NCBI GenBank assembly: GCA_041495205.1
Contig: JBGQCF010000002.1
Span: 86,745-150,744 of the forward strand
DNA from: Gammaproteobacteria bacterium
GTDB lineage: Bacteria > Pseudomonadota > Gammaproteobacteria > Burkholderiales > JAHFRG01
DNA: 64,000 nucleotides
Direction: 5' to 3'
Shown here in pieces: positions 1 through 30,385 of this stretch (its first letter is position 1; every line of letters starts with the position of its first letter). The notes under the pieces are model-generated. The model saw only the letters and a list, made by a program, of their open reading frames with translations, was not told the DNA's origin and made no database searches. A program made the position numbers and the translations under genes.

Positions 1-1117
1 AGCCAACAATACATTGGACGACGACGGGAGCGGGTCAGCAGGGTCATCAGTAATAAGCAGGAATAACCGCTTTCTATTTTCCGGCGCGAGCGTTTTCCTG
101 GCAGGCAAAGCAACCGATAATCTCGGCGCTTTCATCCAATACACCTATGACAATGCCTCGACGGCAGATACCCCAGCTGTACATTTAAAGGGGCATTCTG
201 GTATGGATAATGCCGACATTCGCCTGGTCGGCAAATCTTACGGGGCCAGCGCACAAGAAGTGGAATATATTTATGGGCTGACCCTGAACAACAACCCGAC
301 GGTGCAGGACGTCTGGAACAGCACCCCCGCGTTCGGCTTTCCGTTTACAGCTTCCCCGGTTGCGCTTAGCCCCAGTGCGGCGACGCTGATCGACGGCGGG
401 CTCGGGCAACTTGTCGCGGGATACGGGGCATATGCCTACCTGAAAAAAACACTGTACGCAGAATTAACTTTCTACCAAACCGCAGACGGCGTATTCACGT
501 GGATGAGGGCAGGCCAGCACAGCGCCGATTTGGTGCGTCTGCGTGGCCTTAACCCCTACTACCGTGTCGCGCTGACCCATGATTGGGACGCGCATTCGTT
601 GATGGTGGGGGTATTTGGACTGCGCGCCCAGGTGTTTCCCGACAGCACTGATCCGACCACGGCGACTGACCGCTTCACTGATGACGGTGTGGATGCCCAA
701 TACCAGTACATCACCAATCCGCACACGTTTACCACGCAAGTGACCTATATTCACGAGAAACAGGCTTTTGATGCGAGCAACCCCGGGATCGTTGATATTT
801 TGAAGACGTGGCGCGCCAAGGCAACGTATTACTACCAGAGGAAATACGGCGCCACGTTCCAGTACTTCGATACATCCGGAACGGCTGACCCCGCACTCTA
901 TACCACCGGTGAAGCAGCCAAAAACAGCTTTAATGGTTTCCCCAACAGCAACGGGTTCATCTTTGAACTGGACTATTTGCCAATCCAGAACGTCAGGTTG
1001 ATGGCGCAGTACACAGCCTATAAGAAGTTTAACGGCGGGCGCGACAATTACGATGGCTTTGGCAGGAACGCGAGCGACAATAATACTTGGTTCATGAACG
1101 TTTGGGTTGCATTTTGA
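1..1117 (+). CDS. Cyc2-like outer-membrane cytochrome-porin, beta-barrel portion (5' end outside window)
   Basis: Frame is open to the left edge. Amphipathic beta strands and terminal Phe. Motifs GLTLNNNPTVQDVWNSTPA, DAQYQY and KFNG..NYDG.GRNASDNNT recognised from Cyc2-like proteins. The N-terminal CxxCH cannot be seen. Confidence 0.75.
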   Translation, partial: ANNTLDDDGSGSAGSSVISRNNRFLFSGASVFLAGKATDNLGAFIQYTYDNASTADTPAVHLKGHSGMDNADIRLVGKSYGASAQEVEYIYGLTLNNNPTVQDVWNSTPAFGFPFTASPVALSPSAATLIDGGLGQLVAGYGAYAYLKKTLYAELTFYQTADGVFTWMRAGQHSADLVRLRGLNPYYRVALTHDWDAHSLMVGVFGLRAQVFPDSTDPTTATDRFTDDGVDAQYQYITNPHTFTTQVTYIHEKQAFDASNPGIVDILKTWRAKATYYYQRKYGATFQYFDTSGTADPALYTTGEAAKNSFNGFPNSNGFIFELDYLPIQNVRLMAQYTAYKKFNGGRDNYDGFGRNASDNNTWFMNVWVAF

Positions 1118-1195
1118 CGGTGTGCGACGCTTGAAGATTGTTCACGCACACGAGCATAAAGCGAGTTGAAACGAGCTATATAAAGGACCCCCATA

Positions 1196-2401
1196 ATGAT
1201 CAGGAGCTTTGCAGTTTTTATCGCGGTGACGACGACTCTCTGCAGCGGATTGTCGTGGGGTGATGAACCTACCGGAGAGGTAAAGAAGGCTGCCGCCAAA
1301 GTTGCGATCGAGCTTTGTTCATCGTGCCACGGACCGGGCGGGCAGAGCGTATCGCCACAGTTTCCGCGGCTCAACGGCCAGCAACAACACTATCTTACGG
1401 CGCAACTGCTTGCGCTCAAGAGCAAGACCCGTGCGGATCCTGAAGCGCATGATTTTATGTGGGGCATGGTTAAAAACCTGGATGATTCCACAATTAGCGG
1501 CCTGGCTGAATATTATGCCAAGCAGCCTCCCATGCACGGCACAAAAAAAGGCCCCGCTGCGCTCATCGAAAAAGGAAAAGCGCTTTTCACAAACGGCGTT
1601 CCTTCCAAGAAAATACGGGCATGCGCAGACTGCCATGGAGAAAATGCCGGGGGTCAATACATATTCCCTCGTACGATCGAAGGTGCATCCATATTTCCTC
1701 GTTTGGCCGGGCAGCACGCCGAATATCTGGTGCGGCAGGTTACTGTGATTCAGGATAAGCTGCGCGATTCGCCGATTATGCACGGGATTGTTCAACAGCT
1801 TTCAGAGGATGAAAAGAAAGCGCTTGCAATATATTTGGAGTCTTTGGCTGACGAACCTACCGGAGAGGTAAAGAAAGCTGCCAAAGTTGCGATCGAGCTC
1901 TGTTCATCCTGCCACGGACCTGCCGGACAGAGTGTCGCGCCACAATTTCCGCGGCTCGCCGGCCAGCAACAGCTCTATCTGGCAGCGCAGTTGCGTGCGC
2001 TCAAGAGCAAGAGCCGGGCGGATCCCGAGGCGCATGATTTTATGTGGGGCATCGCCGGAACACTGGATGATTCCTTGATTAGCGGCCTCGCCGAGTATTA
2101 CGCGAAGCAGCCTCCCATGCACGGCACAAAAGGCCCCGCTGCACTCATCGAGGAAGGCGAGGCGCTTTTCAAAAATGGCATTCCTTCCAAGAAAATCCCG
2201 GCTTGCGCATCCTGCCATGGAGAAAATGCCCGAGGTGCCTCCCTATTCCCTCGTTTGGCCGGACAGCGCGCCGAATATCTGGTGCGGCAGATTAATGTGA
2301 TTCAGCAAAATCTGCGCACATCGCCAATTATGCATGGGATTGTGGAGCAGCTCTCGGAGAAAGAAATGAAAGCGCTTGCGACATACCTAGAATCCTTGTA
2401 G
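1196..2401 (+). CDS. Periplasmic tetraheme cytochrome c: two fused diheme c4 (Cyc1-like) units
   Basis: Signal peptide; four CxxCH (CSSCH, CADCH, CSSCH, CASCH); PRLAGQ motifs; RAD...MW and QPPM segments typical of Cyc1-type c4. Confidence 0.9.
   Translation: MIRSFAVFIAVTTTLCSGLSWGDEPTGEVKKAAAKVAIELCSSCHGPGGQSVSPQFPRLNGQQQHYLTAQLLALKSKTRADPEAHDFMWGMVKNLDDSTISGLAEYYAKQPPMHGTKKGPAALIEKGKALFTNGVPSKKIRACADCHGENAGGQYIFPRTIEGASIFPRLAGQHAEYLVRQVTVIQDKLRDSPIMHGIVQQLSEDEKKALAIYLESLADEPTGEVKKAAKVAIELCSSCHGPAGQSVAPQFPRLAGQQQLYLAAQLRALKSKSRADPEAHDFMWGIAGTLDDSLISGLAEYYAKQPPMHGTKGPAALIEEGEALFKNGIPSKKIPACASCHGENARGASLFPRLAGQRAEYLVRQINVIQQNLRTSPIMHGIVEQLSEKEMKALATYLESL
1262..2398 (+). repeat. Intragenic tandem duplication (units 1262-1846 and 1850-2398)
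   Basis: Both units run from DEPTGEVKKA to YLESL with obvious nucleotide similarity. Confidence 0.95.
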
Positions 2402-2440
2402 GCCAACCTTGCATTATTCAACAGAGTGGAGATTAAACAC

Positions 2441-2776
2441 ATGAAGCAGACCCCTATTAATATCCATCGTCGTGGTTTTCTAAAAATCGGTTCGCTTGCG
2501 GCAGCGTTTATCGCGGTAGGCACGCATGCCTTGAAATCCGCTGCACAAGGTGCGCAGGTAGATGAAAAGGATGTGACAGCACAGAGCTTGGGATACAAGC
2601 ATGACGCAACCAAGGCCGACAAAGCGAAATTTCCCAAGTATGCAGCAGGGCAGACATGCGCGAATTGTCAGCTGTTTCAAGGCAAGCCCGGCGAAGCGTG
2701 GGGCCCCTGTCCTATTTTTGCCGGCAAGGTTGTCAACGCCAAGGGCTGGTGTTCAGCTTACATCAAGAAAGCTTAA
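2441..2776 (+). CDS. High-potential iron-sulfur protein (HiPIP)
   Basis: Tat signal RRGFLK; A.SLGYKHDA; CANC...CPIF...GWC four-Cys pattern. Confidence 0.93.
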   Translation: MKQTPINIHRRGFLKIGSLAAAFIAVGTHALKSAAQGAQVDEKDVTAQSLGYKHDATKADKAKFPKYAAGQTCANCQLFQGKPGEAWGPCPIFAGKVVNAKGWCSAYIKKA

Positions 2777-2896: not shown

Positions 2897-4255
2897 TCAA
2901 TCAAGCCGGTCCTGCTCAAGATAATCCGGAACACGGCAGTTCCAGCCTAACTCTTCCTCGATGCGGTGACGCAGGGCGTCCGCCGCCGCGGGTTCCCCAT
3001 GGGTTACGAATGTGCGCCGAGGCGGCGTCCTGAAGCCTCTCAGCCAAGCCATGATCTCGCTGGCATCGGCATGCGCCGAAAGATTGTTGATGGCAGCGAC
3101 CTCGGCGCGGATCGGCACGTACCCGCCGTGAATCTTCACCGACTCGGCCCCGGCAAGAATGGACGCGCCGCGCGTGCCGCCGGCCTGGAATCCGGAAAAG
3201 AGAATGGTGTTGCGGGGGTCGGGGGCGAAAGCTTTCAGGTGATGCACGACTCGGCCGCCTGTGGCCATGCCGCTTGCCGCGATGATAATCATGGGGCCGC
3301 GCTTGTTGTTGAGGCTCTTCGATTCTTTCGCACTGTTGACGATGTGGGCGGTCGTGCACATCGCATCACACTGTTCCGGCGTCAACCTGTGCTCGCCGAG
3401 GTGATTGTGAAATACCTGCGTCACATCGGCTGCCATCGGGCTGTTGAGAAATACCGGAAGGTCGGGAATAGTTTTCTCTGCCTTTAACAAGTGGATGTAA
3501 TAGAGAAGCGTCTGGGCACGGCCGACCGCAAATGCGGGAATGATGACGACTCCACCTCGTTTGGCGGTGCGGTTGATGATCTCCGCTAGTTTCAGGCGCG
3601 GGTCAGCCGGATCGTGCCGGCGATCACCATAAGTGGATTCGACCACCAGATAATCGGCTGTCTCGATCGTCTTGGGCGCGGGCATCACCATGTCGTTGGG
3701 ACGCCCGATGTCCCCGGAGAACAGGATTGACGTTTCCGGGCTGCGAATGGATACGAATGCAGAACCGAGAATATGCCCTGAAGGAAGGAATTGCACTTTG
3801 AGTTCCTTTTCCAGAACCCACTCGGCGTCGAAATCGAGCGGCGAGAAGAGCTTCAGACAATTTCCGGCATCCTCCTTTGTATAAAGCGGCAGTGCCGGCT
3901 TGTGCTTGGAGAATCCCTGCCGATTCGCATATTCGGCTTCTTCTTCCTGCAGATGACCGCTGTCGGGAAGCAGGATCTCACAGAGATCACGGGTCGCATG
4001 CGTGCAGTAGATCCGCCCCGTGAAACCGTTTTTAGCGAGCAGCGGGATGTAACCACTGTGATCGATGTGAGCATGGGTAAGGACTACAGCGTTGATGGTC
4101 TGGGGATCGACGGGCAACGGCTCCCAGTTTCTCAGGCGCAATTGTTTAAAGCCCTGGAACAGTCCGCAGTCAATAAGAATCTTTTTCGAGCCTGTGCTCA
4201 CCAGATACTTTGATCCTGTGACGGTGCCCGTTGCGCCCAGGAATTGGATTTTCAT
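2897..4255 (-). CDS. MBL-fold/beta-CASP RNA-processing metallo-hydrolase
   Basis: [48 protein letters not shown]. Confidence 0.93.
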   Translation of the reverse strand: MKIQFLGATGTVTGSKYLVSTGSKKILIDCGLFQGFKQLRLRNWEPLPVDPQTINAVVLTHAHIDHSGYIPLLAKNGFTGRIYCTHATRDLCEILLPDSGHLQEEEAEYANRQGFSKHKPALPLYTKEDAGNCLKLFSPLDFDAEWVLEKELKVQFLPSGHILGSAFVSIRSPETSILFSGDIGRPNDMVMPAPKTIETADYLVVESTYGDRRHDPADPRLKLAEIINRTAKRGGVVIIPAFAVGRAQTLLYYIHLLKAEKTIPDLPVFLNSPMAADVTQVFHNHLGEHRLTPEQCDAMCTTAHIVNSAKESKSLNNKRGPMIIIAASGMATGGRVVHHLKAFAPDPRNTILFSGFQAGGTRGASILAGAESVKIHGGYVPIRAEVAAINNLSAHADASEIMAWLRGFRTPPRRTFVTHGEPAAADALRHRIEEELGWNCRVPDYLEQDRLD

Positions 4256-9844: not shown

Positions 9845-10327
9845 TCACTTTGCCAATACTACTTCTGTTTTCATTCCGGCCTCGAAGTGACCTGGGATAT
9901 GGCACGCAAACACCAGCTTACCCTGAACTGGTTTGTCGAATTTCCAAATCAGCACCTTGGTCTCGCCGGGCTCAAGCGTCACCATGTTCGGGTCATTGTG
10001 AACCATGTTTGGCATCTTTTTCATCATTGCAGCATGCGCTCGCTGATACGGTGCGTCCCCGATTGAGAACTCGTGGCGGGTCTGGCCGGTGTTCTTGATA
10101 ACAAATTTCACAACGTCACCCCGCTTGATGTCGGTGCGGTCAAACACGAACTTCATCTGATCGTTGGCCTCGACATTGATGGTCTTGGTAACTTCGGATT
10201 CCGTACCTGGGTCGCCAAAGGTTACCTTCATGCCGTCATGATGGTCATGGCCGGCATCGGCGAACGCAGGCCCGTATGCAAAAAGTGCGGATATAATTAC
10301 TATTGCACGAGTAAGCTTGGTCTTCAT
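9845..10327 (-). CDS. Periplasmic cupredoxin, CopI-like
   Basis: Signal peptide; His-rich N-terminus; HEFSIG; Met-rich loop; CHIPGHFEAGM type-1 Cu ligands. Confidence 0.85.
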   Translation of the reverse strand: MKTKLTRAIVIISALFAYGPAFADAGHDHHDGMKVTFGDPGTESEVTKTINVEANDQMKFVFDRTDIKRGDVVKFVIKNTGQTRHEFSIGDAPYQRAHAAMMKKMPNMVHNDPNMVTLEPGETKVLIWKFDKPVQGKLVFACHIPGHFEAGMKTEVVLAK

Positions 10328-10389
10328 ATCAATTCTCTTAATACGTTGCATGAGACTCGTTAGCTACAGAGAATTCGTGTTGTCTGACG

Positions 10390-11009: not shown

Positions 11010-13391
11010 TTAGCGGTTAGAGAGCTTCACGCGCTTTAGCAGCGCGGAATTGACGATCACCGAAAGCGAGCTCAACGCCATGGCAGCTGCAGCAATGACA
11101 GGATTGAGGAAACCCAATGCCGCGATGGGAACGCCGACAGAGTTATAGATGAAAGCCCAGAACAGGTTTTGCTTGATGGTGCGCATTGTTGCGCGGGAAA
11201 GATTGATGCCTGAGACAACGTCACGCACATCGTTCTTTACGAGGATGATGCCGCCGGTCTCCTTGGCTACATCGGAGCCCGAGCCGATGGCGATGCCGAT
11301 ATCCGCGGTGGCCAGCGCCGGCGCGTCGTTGACGCCATCGCCAACCATCGCCACCACCTTCTTCTTCGCCTGAAGATCCTTGATGATCCGGGCCTTGTCG
11401 GAAGGCAAAACCTCGGCAATAACAGTATCGATTCCTAGCTCGCGACCGATCGTGTTGGCGGTGCGAGAGTTGTCGCCGGTAAGCATGATCACCTCAATGC
11501 CGCTTGCTTTCAGCGATGCAACTGCCTCTTTCGCTTCCGGCTTGAGAGTGTCGGCGACAGCGATGATTGCGGCAAGCTTGCCGCCACAGCCGACCAGCAT
11601 CGCGGTCTTGCCTTCCGCTTCTAGCCGCACCATTTCCGTCTCGGCGGCTGTGACATCCACATTCTGGCGCTTGAGATGACGCCGGTTTCCGAGCAGCACT
11701 TGGCGGCCCTCGATCTCGCCAACTACGCCATGTCCCGGCACCGAATCAAAATTCGCAACGGCAGTAAGTTCAATCCCCGTATTCTTGGCTGCACGGACAA
11801 TCGCTTCGCCGAGTGGGTGTTCCGAACCGCTTTCAAGACTCGCGGCGAGCCGAAGCACATCGTTCTTGCCGAACGGAGGGAAGGCGACAATGTCTGTCAC
11901 GTCCGGTTCTCCGCGTGTTAGGGTGCCGGTCTTGTCGAAAACGACCGCGGTCAGCTTCTGGGCGCGCTCGAGAATTTCGCCACCCCGGATGAGGATGCCT
12001 CCCTCGGCGCCCCTGCCGACGCCCACCATCAACGCCGCCGGGGTGGCGATTCCCAATGCGCAGGGGCAGGCAATGATGAGGACGGCGATGAAGGCGAGCA
12101 GCCCCTGCGGGAAATTCCCCGCAAGCCACCACCCGGCAAACGCGAGCACCGCGGTGCCGACCACCGCCGGAACGAAATAAGTGGTGACTCGATCCGCAAG
12201 GCGCTGGATGGGAGCGCTGCTGGCCTGAGCTTCTTCCACCAGCTTGATGATCTGGGCGAGGGCGGTTTCCGCGCCGACCTTGGTGGCCTGAAAGCGGAAC
12301 ATTCCGGTCCGATTCAGCGTCCCGCCGATCACGGCGGAGCCAGGACGCTTCTCGACCGGCATCGATTCCCCGGTGAGCATGGATTCGTCTACAGCAGACG
12401 CGCCCTCCAAGACGACGCCGTCAGTGGGGATCTTCTCGCCCGGCCGGACGATCACTGTTTCCTCGACCATCACGCTCTCGGCCGGCACTTCCATTTCCTG
12501 GCCGTCCCGGATCACGCGAGCGGTCGCCGGCTTGAGGTCAAGGAGCTTGCGCACCGCTGCGGAGGAGTGCTTCTTAATGATCTCTTCCATGTATTTGCCG
12601 AGCAACACGAACGCGATAATCACCGCCGAGACTTCAAAGTAAACATCGCGCTCCTCGACTTTCACCGGGAGCATGTCCGGGAAAAACAGCACCGCCACGC
12701 TGTAGAAGTATGCAACCGAAGTGCCGAGCGCAATGAGGAAGTCCATGTTGATGGACCGCGTGCGGACCGCGTTCCAGGCGCCGACGTAGAAACTCCATCC
12801 GCCGATGAATTGAACCGGCGTGACCAGCAGGAACAGCCATATTCCCCAAGTAAACCACGGCAACTGCGGAATTGGTGCCCAAGTAAGAATCGTCGCCCCC
12901 GTGGCAAGCGCGAGGAACGCTCCCGCGCGCATGATCGCGAGCGCCAGCACGCCGGTGAGCGCGATGGTCACCCGCGTGCGCATGGACTTCAGCTCGGCCT
13001 CGGGCGATTCGAAGGTGCGTTGGCAACCGACGCTGCAGAAGTAATAGGTTCGGCCGCCACGCTCCGAGCGCAGTGACGTCGCCTTGTCGACCATCATTCC
13101 GCAGATCGGATCCTTTGCCATTTCCTTTGCGGATTTGCGGATAGCGCTCTGCATCGGTGTGTCGTGCTCGGCGTGGGCGATCGACCGCCCGTGAGCCGGG
13201 GCAAGCGTGAGTGTCGCCGCATGCGTCTTCGGATTTCCTTGATCCGCTCTGCCCGCGAATTTACCGGGGTCTGCCTTGAATGCGTTCAGGCAATGCGCGG
13301 AGCAAAAGAAATACGTCTGCCCCTGGTACGCGTGACTCCCTCCCGAGCGGGCGGGATCAACTTCCATCCCGCACACGGGATCAATTGCCAT
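11010..13391 (-). CDS. copA: Cu(I)-translocating P1B-1 ATPase with two N-terminal YHS domains
   Basis: DPVCGM/YFFCS and DPICGM/YYFCS; TGES, CPC, DKTGT, SEHP, GDGVND, YN, MALSS. Confidence 0.93.
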
Positions 13392-13431
13392 TGCTTTACC
13401 TCTTCTCTTTCCTTGTTCCTTCACCCGAACT

Positions 13432-13716
13432 TCAGCTTGGACCGCTGTCGCCGTGGAACAGGTTGTGCAGCCAAGCGAACAGCGCACCGACCGCGAAGCC
13501 CCAAATCACGAAGACCACCAACGGATAGATGAACATCGGGAAGGTGAAAGGCTCGGGCATTACGAGCTTGCGGAAATCAAGCCCGTGAAACAGGGCGTTT
13601 AGGAAATCAATTCCCCGTTCTGGCCACAGCGCGTACAGTGCTGCGCAAACTGTATAGCTAATGGCAAGCGTCAACGCCAGTGTAGCCCCTGTTTTCCAGG
13701 GATGCATCGTTGTCAT
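13432..13716 (-). CDS. DUF5676-like membrane protein
   Basis: AAGGAGG RBS; YTVCA...[11 protein letters not shown]; two TM helices. Confidence 0.7.
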
Positions 13717-28406: not shown

Positions 28407-28665
28407 AAGCTACCTCTAAAAAATTCAATGCATCCTGCCGCAGGTTGGCGCCGGGAAACGCCTGCTCCAGGTTTTTGACAACGTCAGCGATGGGGAGTTT
28501 GCCGTCGATGCGTTTCAGTATCTCGCCCGCGCTCTGCGAGAGCTTGACCATGCCCTCCGGGTAAAGCAGCACGTAGGCCTGCTGCACCTGCTCCCATTGC
28601 AGGCGGAATTGCCGCTGCAGTTGCACCACGTCCTGGAGAGTCAGCTTCGTGCGCTCGGCCATCAT
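28369..28665 (-). CDS. pqqD: PqqA chaperone
   Basis: [19 protein letters not shown]; lies between pqqC and pqqE. Confidence 0.95.
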
Positions 28666-29375
28666 TTGATTTCCGTCTTGCAATAGGTGATTTGCATCGC
28701 GTCCAGCATGGACCACAGCACGTCCAGCTTGAATTGCAGGATTTCCAGGGCGCGTTCCTGCTGTTGGCGGGTCTTGAAGTATTCCAGGGTGAAAGCCAGG
28801 CCATGCGCCACATCGCGGCGCGCCTGCGTCAGCCGGTTGCGGAAATACTGGTAGCCTTCCTGGTCGATCCAGGGGTAATGCTGCGGCCAGTTATCGAGCC
28901 GGTTCTTGTGGATTTCCGGGGCGAACAGTTCAGTGAGCGAGGAGCAAATCGCCTCCTGCCACGGGCGGGTGCGCGCAAAGTTGACATACGCGTCTACAGC
29001 GAAGCGCACGCCCGGCAAAACGTGTTTTAGCGAAGTGATTTCTTCGCGCTTCAATCCCACCGCTTCGCCGAGCCGGATCCACGCCTCGATGCCGCCTTCA
29101 TCGCCCTTGGTGCCGTCGTGGTCGATGATGCGCTGAATCCATTCGCGGCGCACGTCGCGGTCGGGGCAGTTCGAGAGAATCGCCGCGTCTTTGATCGGGA
29201 TGCTGATCTGGTAATAGAAGCGGTTGTACACCCAGCCCTGGATTTGCTCGCGATTCAACTTGCCGGTGTTCATCGCCACCTGGAACGGGTGGTGTATATG
29301 GTAACGATCGCCTTTGGCGCGCAATTGCCTCTCGAATTCCTCTTTACTCCACGGTAATTTTTCCGTTGCGCCCAT
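28662..29375 (-). CDS. pqqC: PQQ synthase
   Basis: [36 protein letters not shown]. Confidence 0.96.
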
Positions 29376-29388
29376 CTTAAATCTCCTG

Positions 29389-29474
29389 GTAAGGAGTAAG
29401 GGGTAAGGGGTGAGGCGTGAAAACCTGCTGTACGATTCGTATTAATTCCTTACTCCTCACTCTTCACTCCTCAC
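29389..29474. repeat. Two inverted arrays of heptamer tandem repeats
   Basis: GTAAGGA GTAAGGG GTAAGGG GTGAGGC facing TCCTTAC TCCTCAC TCTTCAC TCCTCAC. Confidence 0.8.
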
Positions 29475-30385
29475 AGAATTATTTCCATCCCATCATACGC
29501 CACTTCAATGCCATTGGCGGTGAGTTCGGCGCGTTCGCGCGACTCTTCGTTGAGGATGGGATTGGTGTTGTTGATGTGGATCAAAATCTTGCGTGGTTTG
29601 GTGAGGGGCTTCAGCACGCTGATCATGCCGCCTTCGCCGCTTTGCGGCAAATGCCCCATGTCGCGCGCGCTCTGCTTGAAGATGCCGAACCGGATCAGTT
29701 CGTCATCGGTCCAGCAGGTGCCGTCCACCAGAAGGCAGTCGGCATTTTTCAAAAAGGGTTCGAGATGCGGTTCGAGTTTACCGAGGCCCGGAGCGTAAAA
29801 CAGCGTTTTGCCGCTGCGCGTGTCTTCGATGCGCACGCCGATATTGTCACCCTCGTGCGGATTATTGCGGTGCGGGGAATAGGGGGGCGCCTTGCTTTTG
29901 AGCGGCACCGCGGTAAAGAGCAAGTGCTGCGCGCCGATCACGTTGAAGCTGTTGCCGTTGTGAGTGGGCAGTTTGTGCCAATTGACTGTGCAATAGTGCC
30001 CGAGAACATTGAATAATGGATTCCCTGTGGTGAGATCTTCATGCGCCATCTCGGTGCAGTAGATTTCCAGGGGTTTCCCTTCGCGCAGCATCAACAAGCC
30101 GGTGGTATGGTCAATCTGGCTGTCGATCAAAATAATCGCCTTGATCGCGGTGTCGCGGATGGCGCGCGCCGGCTGCAAGGCGGGAAAAGCTTTAATTTGA
30201 GCGAGAACGTCCGGCGAAGCGTTGAACAGTATCCAGTCCAGGTTGTTTTCGCTGATCGCGATGGAGGACTGGGTGCGCGGCCTGGCTTTGATCTTGCCCT
30301 TGCGCACGCCGTCGCAATTAGGGCAGTTGCAGTTCCATTGTGGAAACCCGCCGCCGGCAGCGGCGCCAAGCACGCGAATTTTCAT
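29471..30385 (-). CDS. pqqB: PQQ biosynthesis protein B
   Basis: [35 protein letters not shown]. Confidence 0.96.

Follow-up and report, generated by a model that had tools for sequence, protein, structure and literature searches.

The window analysed here is a stretch of 64,000 nt (positions 86745-150744 of contig C2 of the source genome, G000, which is 98.9% complete), and it begins with three genes predicted to encode a Cyc2-type outer-membrane cytochrome, a fused tetrahaem cytochrome c4 and an iron-sulfur protein of the high-potential type (HiPIP). The three open reading frames (ORFs) all lie on the + strand, at window positions 2-1117 (ORF1, open at its 5′ end), 1196-2401 (ORF2) and 2426-2776 (ORF3). 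The spacer between ORF1 and ORF2 measures 78 nt, and that between ORF2 and ORF3 measures 24-39 nt, depending on the start codon chosen for the HiPIP. A longer stretch of the contig that includes the 10 kb preceding the window (L002) was used to complete ORF1, and a consensus scan of L002 9300-13000 returned no terminator-like site on the + strand. The cyc2, tetrahaem and HiPIP genes form a three-gene operon-like unit. This agrees with the initial annotation, which had described three co-oriented, closely spaced genes for an outer-membrane barrel, a four-haem c4 cytochrome and a HiPIP; the Cyc2 features and structural model of ORF1, the four Cytochrom_C matches of ORF2 and the PF01355 match of ORF3, presented below, bear out these identities as well.

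The window holds the last 371 codons and the stop codon of the cyc2-type gene (1..1117, + strand), assigned from the ORF, an AlphaFold2 (AF2) model, Foldseek and an alignment with a rus-operon Cyc2. In the upstream DNA the gene starts about 250 nt before the window, at L002 9750, or at L002 9723 for the longest frame. The completed protein thus has 464 residues from the first ATG, or 455 residues from the ATG behind AAGGGGGG; the latter is the length and the start ATG of an identical database protein (P0002). Read by eye, its hydrophobic leader ends in GGNAYA, before VPAF, and continues with VPAFARQTGQECIACH. The sole CxxCH motif is CIACH (C50-H54 in the 464-residue frame), the first Cys of which is residue 12 of the predicted mature chain. 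That is, the signal peptide and the single N-terminal CxxCH that the initial annotation expected to lie upstream are both present in the full gene. At the N-terminus, Q45, C50, C53, H54, L60, G64, F67 and K68 are invariant among 38 relatives with 33-58% identity.

The AF2 model of ORF1, based on the 38-sequence alignment, has a predicted local distance difference test (pLDDT) of 86.7 and a predicted template-modelling score (pTM) of 0.84, and consists of a short helical N-terminus and 16 strands of 9-16 residues. A Foldseek search with this model retrieved at least 260 porin chains at E <= 0.001, namely 16-strand general and specific porins; among the matches listed, OprP (2o4v) had the highest query TM-score (TMq, 0.50). 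At the level of sequence, neither the fragment nor the full-length protein matched any family in Pfam or NCBIfam, and a search of PDB sequences gave no match at E <= 1. Relatives are nonetheless numerous: 3823 proteins scored E <= 0.001 among 7999 candidates, and an exhaustive search gave 2834 clusters at 50% identity, with E <= 1e-30 for 397. In a protein atlas only unnamed clusters were found; in the nearest one for which a Pfam family is common, 20% of the members carry Porin_O_P, which serves as a lead only. Keffer et al. 2021 define Cyc2, in the passages available, by a signal peptide, a single CXXCH and a 16-strand porin with an OprO/OprP-like fold (PMC8406198), and every structural element of this definition is found in ORF1: the leader, the single CXXCH near the N-terminus and the 16-strand barrel. 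ORF1 is predicted to be a Cyc2-family protein, i.e., a c-type cytochrome with one haem that is joined to an outer-membrane porin of 16 strands.

The third gene matches PF01355 (HIPIP, cut-off 22) with a score of 102.7 bits. Among solved structures it is most like 1hlq (E 9e-22) and 1hpi, with which the cluster cysteines C78, C81, C95 and C109 (116-residue numbering) can be aligned. Translation could begin at GTG 2426, to give 116 residues, or at ATG 2441, to give 111 residues (2441..2776, + strand). The latter is the likelier start, because GGAG precedes ATG 2441 and because relatives have the same MKQT... start. The leader contains the twin-arginine motif HRRGFLK (RRGFLK at nt 2468-2485), and the Pfam TAT_signal model scores 15.3 bits vs a cut-off of 22.7. 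This is the only HiPIP gene in G000.

Between these two genes lies the tetrahaem cytochrome. A 78-nt spacer (1118..1195, + strand), read to have AAAGGA 9 nt ahead of the ATG, leads to an ORF of 401 residues, with CxxCH motifs at residues 41, 143, 236 and 337, to which Pfam Cytochrom_C aligns in four stretches (E 4.7e-35). The two halves of the protein are 78% identical, and their DNA is 79% identical. Residues 1-22 (1196..1261) would be the signal peptide, read by eye from the translation as ...LSWG/DEPTG; we place the cleavage site here because the leader is hydrophobic and the second half starts at the same DEPTG. Unit A, delimited by the sequence and by the tree described below, spans residues 23-217 (1262..1846, + strand), with CSSCH at nt 1316-1330 and CADCH at nt 1622-1636. 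Unit B, delimited by the identity of the halves and by the match to 1h1o, spans residues 218-401 and the stop codon (1847..2401, + strand), with CSSCH at nt 1901-1915 and CASCH at nt 2204-2218. The reading frame runs on from unit A into unit B, which lacks a separate signal peptide and opens with DEPTGEVKK, just as unit A does after its signal peptide. In each half FMWG and PIMHG are kept downstream of the two CxxCH motifs.

Among solved structures, the halves of ORF2 are closest to 1h1o (E 4.2e-39), which we take to be the cytochrome c4 of A. ferrooxidans encoded by cyc1; other c4 structures follow (8uf3, 5.3e-29; 1etp, 1e-27). The Cyc1-like character ascribed to this cytochrome in the initial annotation is thus confirmed at the level of the halves, which are also 40% and 36% identical to the Cyc1-type c4 of the rus operon in locus L232 (see below). 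Cyc1, however, is a single dihaem protein of about 200 residues, and ORF2 has 401 residues and four haem sites. The protein is, as judged from these comparisons, a fusion of two Cyc1-like dihaem c4 units and not a Cyc1 itself.

Some insight into the history of this fusion can be gained from related species. The GTDB-level family of the source genome consists of one genus, for which we used 10 species genomes, including the unpublished G119; all statements on the genus refer to this set. The c4 gene is fused in G000 and in G112 (locus L003, which encodes the fused form at 81% identity), is split into two separate genes in G116 (L005) and G117, and is a single gene in G118 (L004), where a more distant c4 follows the HiPIP. 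A 10-residue insert after the second haem site of unit A is also found in the first half of the L003 protein and in the first dihaem gene of L005. In a maximum-likelihood tree of 12 rows, two of which are long branches of uncertain position, the first half of the window protein, the first half from L003 and gene 1 of L005 make up one clade (paralogue A; support 100/99), and the second units form a grade around it. A paralogue-A clade that shares an insert across fused and separate genes argues that a tandem duplication came first, and that an in-frame fusion, with loss of the stop codon, the spacer and the second signal peptide, occurred later. In a large protein collection the fused form accounts for only four clusters at 90% identity, of 401-403 residues and 81-100% identity. 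Metagenomes also contain other multi-c4 cytochromes, of 368-437 and 538-627 residues, with 37-42% identity over more than 90% of the query (P0275-P0285, P0289, P0294, P0300). Because these fusions are unrelated to that of the window, the joining of c4 units has happened more than once.

The 79% identity of the two halves in DNA, together with the two separate genes in sister species, also raises the question of whether the 401-residue protein could be an artefact, i.e., whether the assembly collapsed or joined two tandem dihaem genes. However, the junction (L002 11847) is crossed without a gap by a 1460-nt contig of run X8, with 3 differing letters, and by a 306-nt contig of run X9. Because neither run is flagged as a source of the genome, these contigs indicate that the fusion is real. 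The fused form is, moreover, shared by the four clusters just mentioned and by another species (L003), and an artefact is therefore exceedingly improbable. One joint in X8, which skips 1170 nt (L002 11087 to 12258), was rejected as an artefact of a repeat or of another organism; its shorter side has 25 letters.

Cyc2 proteins of different groups have significant similarity at the N-terminus only, as stated by He et al. 2017 (PMC5566968), and it therefore matters how far along the chain a match extends. As an anchor, 103 genomes of the order of an Acidiferrobacterales metagenome-assembled genome were searched, and 53 of them had a match. Four of the loci (L232, L233, L235 and L236) have the order cyc2, dihaem c4, gap, coxB, coxA. 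In L232 the full order is cyc2, dihaem c4, a 196-aa ORF, CoxB, CoxA, a 212-aa ORF, haem o synthase, rusticyanin (200 bits with TIGR03095, whose cut-off is 146.7) and CtaG, which is the order printed for the Acidiferrobacter rus operon (PMC10654088). The window Cyc2 is 30% identical to the L232 Cyc2 over its full length (residues 15-464, E 1e-52). This full-length match, taken with the restriction of cross-group similarity to the N-terminus, points to the Acidithiobacillus-type branch, Cluster 2; the placement is an inference from the rus-operon comparison and from taxa in the literature, not from a reference tree.

The taxa in question come from a search for relative loci with a 12-sequence alignment and the motif AVP[SA]FARQT. 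The motif was found in at least 599 stretches of species genomes, 589 of which were confirmed, and the best 80 were kept. Represented among these 80 are Paraburkholderia, Ralstonia, Crenobacter, Paludibacterium, Methylophilaceae and Methylocapsa. The placement in Cluster 2 is suggested also because they overlap with the network neighbours that are given for the A. ferrooxidans Cyc2, namely Burkholderiales, Chromobacteriaceae, Nitrosomonadales, Hyphomicrobiales and Rhodanobacteraceae (PMC10654088).

G000 has a second Cyc2-like gene, on contig C37 (L046 1477-3006), which encodes 509 residues with a signal peptide and AVPSYSRRYGVECSRCH. It matches the window Cyc2 over the first ~150 residues only (E 2e-10). 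Its own relatives, at 51-69% identity, are from genomes of Burkholderiales, Nitrospirota, Acidobacteriota and Anaeromyxobacter oryzae; among the 16 loci that match it there are no known iron oxidisers, and its 1.5-kb flanks contain no c4 match.

The initial annotation had also proposed that the synteny of these genes be surveyed. We compared 117 distinct loci with a Cyc2 relative (two duplicates, L049 and L056, having been dropped), 109 of which have at least 900 bp downstream. A dihaem c4 gene lies within 600 bp of cyc2, on the same strand, in 84 of the 109, whereas only 6 of the 117 have a HiPIP at any position in the flanks that were retrieved: downstream in three sister species, upstream in two loci (L038, L041) and on the other strand in one (L108). 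Thus, cyc2-c4 is an old, widespread pair, and the HiPIP is a local addition, almost confined to this genus.

Within the genus, a Cyc2 of the window type is present in 5 of the 10 species, or in 5 of the 7 genomes of high quality, so that the cyc2-c4-HiPIP unit, found in half of the species, is an accessory one. A HiPIP is present in 6 of the 10, and in all five Cyc2 carriers it is located on the same contig, after the c4 gene or genes. It follows cyc2 by ~1.5-1.7 kb in the carriers, and by ~0.9 kb in G118, where a single dihaem gene lies between them.

Several known systems resemble this unit. The rus operon of Acidithiobacillus and Acidiferrobacter (cyc2-cyc1-cup-coxBACD-...-rus) likewise begins with Cyc2, directly followed by a Cyc1-type c4. 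In the window, by contrast, the Cyc1 is doubled and fused, the third gene is a HiPIP, and there are no cup or cox genes in the cluster. Rusticyanin is above the cut-off of TIGR03095 in none of the 10 genomes of the genus, the only match being a weak one of 22.7 bits in G000. Also unlike the hosts of the rus operon, the host of the window comes from sediment metagenomes, and nothing in the analysis suggests acidophily.

The closest parallels to the use of a HiPIP are in Ferrovum and Bradyrhizobium. Cluster 2 Cyc2 is reported to occur in Ferrovaceae (PMC13390463). For Ferrovum, also a betaproteobacterium, a scheme with the same three kinds of protein has been described, in which a HiPIP is proposed to take the role of rusticyanin and electrons pass from a Cyc2-like protein to HiPIP-41 and on to CytC-18 and CytC-78, both of them cytochromes of the c4 type (PMC10879576). 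Ferrovum differs in being a moderate acidophile with very high carrier potentials (571 mV for HiPIP-41; PMC10879576), and its c4 proteins are described there as separate dihaems; the term 'gene cluster' does not occur in that paper. In Bradyrhizobium, a neutrophile, He et al. 2017, citing Percak-Dennett 2017, describe a cluster of cyc2, a HiPIP gene and Cyc1/CycA1 homologues (PMC5566968). Compared by this description, the same kinds of gene are brought together as in the window, but in an alphaproteobacterium and with separate cytochromes.

Two further systems are alike in part. The Cyc2PV-1 of Mariprofundus ferrooxydans has, by its published description, a signal peptide, one CXXCH and a 16-strand porin, and is proposed to hand electrons over to a periplasmic dihaem protein, Cyc1PV-1 (PMC8406198, PMC7029218); unlike the window Cyc2, it belongs to Cluster 1, and no HiPIP is involved. 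PioABC of Rhodopseudomonas palustris is described as an outer-membrane iron-oxidising module that ends in a gene for a periplasmic HiPIP, PioC (PMC10654088). Its outer-membrane part, however, is a decahaem cytochrome with a separate 26-strand porin, and its electrons go to a photosynthetic reaction centre.

The initial annotation had seen in the window a hybrid in which a HiPIP replaces rusticyanin. The genus indeed lacks rusticyanin, as reported above, but the idea is not new: a HiPIP in the place of rusticyanin behind Cyc2 has already been published for Ferrovum, and a cluster of the corresponding genes for Bradyrhizobium, and the concept is thus ordinary. A fused double Cyc1 is not mentioned in the literature searched on cyc2, HiPIP, cytochrome c4 and tetraheme, a search that did not extend to the supplements of papers, and only the fused tetrahaem appears to be new. 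A literature search on Casimicrobiaceae or Usitatibacter with Cyc2 gave nothing relevant.

Given the gene identities, the fold, the history of the fusion, the synteny and the co-occurrence described so far, it is reasonable, and somewhat more likely than not, that Cyc2, the HiPIP and the tetrahaem cytochrome constitute a wire for Fe(II) oxidation or electron uptake, for which we infer the donor and all of the transfers. The haem of Cyc2 would accept electrons one at a time, either from Fe(II) or from some other cell-surface donor, and would hand them to the HiPIP and/or the tetrahaem cytochrome, both presumed to be high-potential carriers in the periplasm. By analogy with A. ferrooxidans and Ferrovum, the HiPIP would occupy the position of rusticyanin and the tetrahaem cytochrome that of Cyc1. 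The order of HiPIP, then c4, is borrowed from the A. ferrooxidans chain, given as Cyc2 -> rusticyanin -> Cyc1 -> aa3 (PMC13741234, PMC10654088), and from the Ferrovum proposal, in which HiPIP-41 reduces the C-terminal haems of the c4 cytochromes (PMC10879576). The carriers would then feed a caa3-type oxidase, for energy, and would also feed, uphill, the bc1 complex, the quinone pool and NADH, so as to provide reducing power for CO2 fixation by RuBisCO.

The components required downstream are encoded in the host. RuBisCO is present in all 10 genomes of the genus. G000 has one haem-copper oxidase, of the caa3 type, with a C-terminal CAVCH cytochrome domain in subunit II, as well as one bc1 cytochrome b and one bd oxidase; COX1 is matched on contigs C38 and C17 alone, i.e., outside the cyc2 cluster.

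Several points weigh against the Fe(II)-oxidation reading, the first of which is the company that this Cyc2 branch keeps. The branch is found in isolates of Paraburkholderia, Ralstonia, Crenobacter, Novimethylophilus, Paludibacterium, Pseudoduganella and Telluria, and is common in bacteria that are not known as iron oxidisers, including many heterotrophs and methylotrophs; among the best 80 loci there are no classical iron oxidisers. Because of this distribution outside the known iron oxidisers, Fe(II) oxidation by the window operon is a reasonable reading but a putative function, and on this point the initial annotation is not supported. Keffer et al. likewise advise that, outside Cluster 1 and the characterised Cyc2 of acidophiles, function needs a supporting context (PMC8406198), and Hoover et al. 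give the same caution for a Cluster 2 homologue of Nitrotoga (PMC10734462).

These facts would also fit a Cyc2 branch that does not oxidise Fe(II) to conserve energy at neutral pH, but that serves, with its c4, in some other redox task at the outer membrane, such as iron detoxification, uptake-linked redox reactions, the exchange of electrons with humics or with minerals, or the sensing of redox conditions. The cyc2-c4 pair is carried by cultivated heterotrophs and methylotrophs, and Paraburkholderia kururiensis and Novimethylophilus kurashikiensis are among its cultivated carriers; it is dispensable in the genus, in which 5 of 10 species carry it and two genomes of 98% completeness do not; and passages of He et al. 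2017 (PMC5566968) and Keffer et al. 2021 (PMC8406198) leave other functions open. Still, all three Cyc2-family proteins that had been tested biochemically, according to Keffer et al., oxidise Fe(II) (PMC8406198), the closest relative defined by its context lies in a rusticyanin operon, and the host, an autotroph, possesses the oxidase and the bc1 complex that lithotrophy needs. We thus regard another task of this kind as unlikely.

A second set of counterarguments concerns other likely sources of energy. A pyrroloquinoline quinone (PQQ) dehydrogenase of the alcohol/methanol type is above its cut-off in 8 of the 10 genomes of the genus, and fits the pqqC and pqqB genes at 28665-30385 in the window. 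SoxB, DsrA above cut-off (weak sub-threshold matches only) and [NiFe] hydrogenase were each found in none of the 10 genomes, and a search of G000 alone gave no NirK. Because RuBisCO and the PQQ dehydrogenase occur without SoxB, DsrA and [NiFe] hydrogenase, the gene content suggests autotrophic methylotrophy as the core lifestyle of the genus, in which Cyc2 and a nitrite oxidoreductase (NXR) would be accessory modules.

The NXR, another likely source of energy, is found in 2 of the 10 genomes. In G000 a complete periplasmic NXR-type cluster lies 2.6 kb ahead of cyc2, on the minus strand and divergent from it (L002 860-7102), with a usp gene, a gene for a 184-aa membrane protein and a globin gene in between. 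It encodes a molybdoenzyme alpha subunit of 1168 residues with a twin-arginine (Tat) leader, a beta subunit, a haem-b gamma subunit and a chaperone, and an MFS transporter gene lies beyond. The best solved relative of the alpha subunit is the A subunit of the Kuenenia nitrite oxidoreductase (7b04_B), over the full length (E 2.1e-269). At least 568 stretches, from genomes of great diversity, hold close relatives with 69-89% identity, and the hosts include Magnetococcales, Thioalkalivibrio, Thiomargarita, Hyphomicrobium and Methylomirabilota.

With such enzymes in the genus, the tetrahaem cytochrome and the HiPIP could be general carriers for the NXR or for the PQQ alcohol dehydrogenase, and Cyc2 would be one input at most, or unrelated. 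The full-length, Kuenenia-type NXR with its Tat signal so close upstream is consistent with such a role, as are the wide occurrence of the PQQ enzyme and the fact that the genome has no other HiPIP. A further point comes from the sister species G113, which keeps a HiPIP and a c4 and has no cyc2. Its locus (L249, G113:C35:66453-69650) contains the globin and usp genes, a ~270-nt 3′ remnant of the c4 gene, the HiPIP gene, the distant c4 and the beta-CASP gene; the cyc2 gene and most of the c4 gene look to have been deleted, with the remnant resembling a deletion scar. Because the HiPIP and a c4 persist after the loss of cyc2, they are not dedicated to Cyc2.

The NXR, however, is not supported as their partner. 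Among 65 loci of NXR relatives that were kept, with up to 10 kb of flank on each side, none has cyc2 or a HiPIP and one has a distant c4 match; the NXR is restricted to two genomes, while the HiPIP adjoins Cyc2 in all five carriers; in the one other species that has an NXR, this cluster and that of cyc2 are on different contigs; and c4 follows cyc2 in 84 of 109 loci, from many lineages. The adjacency of the two clusters is thus not conserved, and may still matter in G000. All things considered, a purely general role of the two carriers seems improbable to about the same degree as another task of Cyc2.

A more far-reaching idea would combine both modules, with Cyc2-(c4)2-HiPIP as a plug-in that opens a periplasmic pool of high potential to the outside. 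In the two NXR-bearing species, including G000 with its NXR only 2.6 kb away, the pool of HiPIP and tetrahaem cytochrome would link Fe(II) oxidation to the NXR, either as an all-periplasmic chain from Fe(II) to nitrate or as a shared route of iron and nitrite to caa3, and the tetrahaem cytochrome would be a longer wire from the haem at the outer membrane to the complexes of the inner membrane. We regard this as speculative, and as a long shot.

Two further observations temper the proposal of a Cyc2-HiPIP-tetrahaem wire. First, the HiPIP need not be the sole rusticyanin-like carrier, because a gene for a small cupredoxin lies 7 kb away, at window 9848-10351 on the minus strand (PF00127, 26.1 bits, cut-off 21.2). 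It scores only 22.7 bits with the rusticyanin model and adjoins a YHS-domain P-type ATPase at 11013-13487, and may be another carrier in the periplasm or may serve to handle copper. Second, the RNA contigs at hand, from a soil RNA library (X24), do not demonstrate transcription of the G000 genes. The run holds a 0.05 share of the words and leaves 9 of 30 bins without cover, and its contigs stem from relatives, because they are 90-95% alike; carry-over of DNA is possible. One of them, of 272 nt, crosses the fusion junction (L002 11796-12064), from which it differs by 17 letters and an insertion of 3 nt. This contig is compatible with a relative's fused gene of 403 aa and, DNA carry-over again being possible, gives a weak hint that a fused form is transcribed.

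If the proposed Fe(II)-oxidation wire is correct, an uncultured sediment lineage, a GTDB-level family of 10 species that all have RuBisCO, would join the candidate neutrophilic iron oxidisers. The genus would also offer a natural experiment, in which c4 is fused (G000, G112), split (G116, G117), single (G118) or mostly deleted along with cyc2 (G113), a series across sister species that shows which parts travel together. In addition, the cyc2-c4 pair of the window branch occurs in bacteria that are easily grown. Iron oxidation by a Cyc2 that is neither of Cluster 1 nor from an acidophile is therefore genetically testable in these bacteria, a kind of test that has so far been impractical in the classical iron oxidisers.

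The unit is flanked by other genes. After the HiPIP gene, and convergent with it, lies a gene for an MBL/beta-CASP/RMMBL hydrolase (window 2897-4255, minus strand), whose product shares 85-94% identity with its counterparts in sister species. In NCBIfam it scores best, with 390.7 bits, against the model of the type VII CRISPR protein Cas14, which has a cut-off of 800. Because this score is far below the cut-off of the model, the identity as Cas14 was rejected, and the product is taken to be an ordinary beta-CASP ribonuclease-like protein. Directly ahead of cyc2 are a gene for a universal stress protein (usp; L002 7605-8084) and one for a single-domain globin (L002 9061-9519). Both are found in G000 and in each of the four further species of the genus that have Cyc2 (L003, L004, L005 and L244), and both are also present at the deleted locus of G113.

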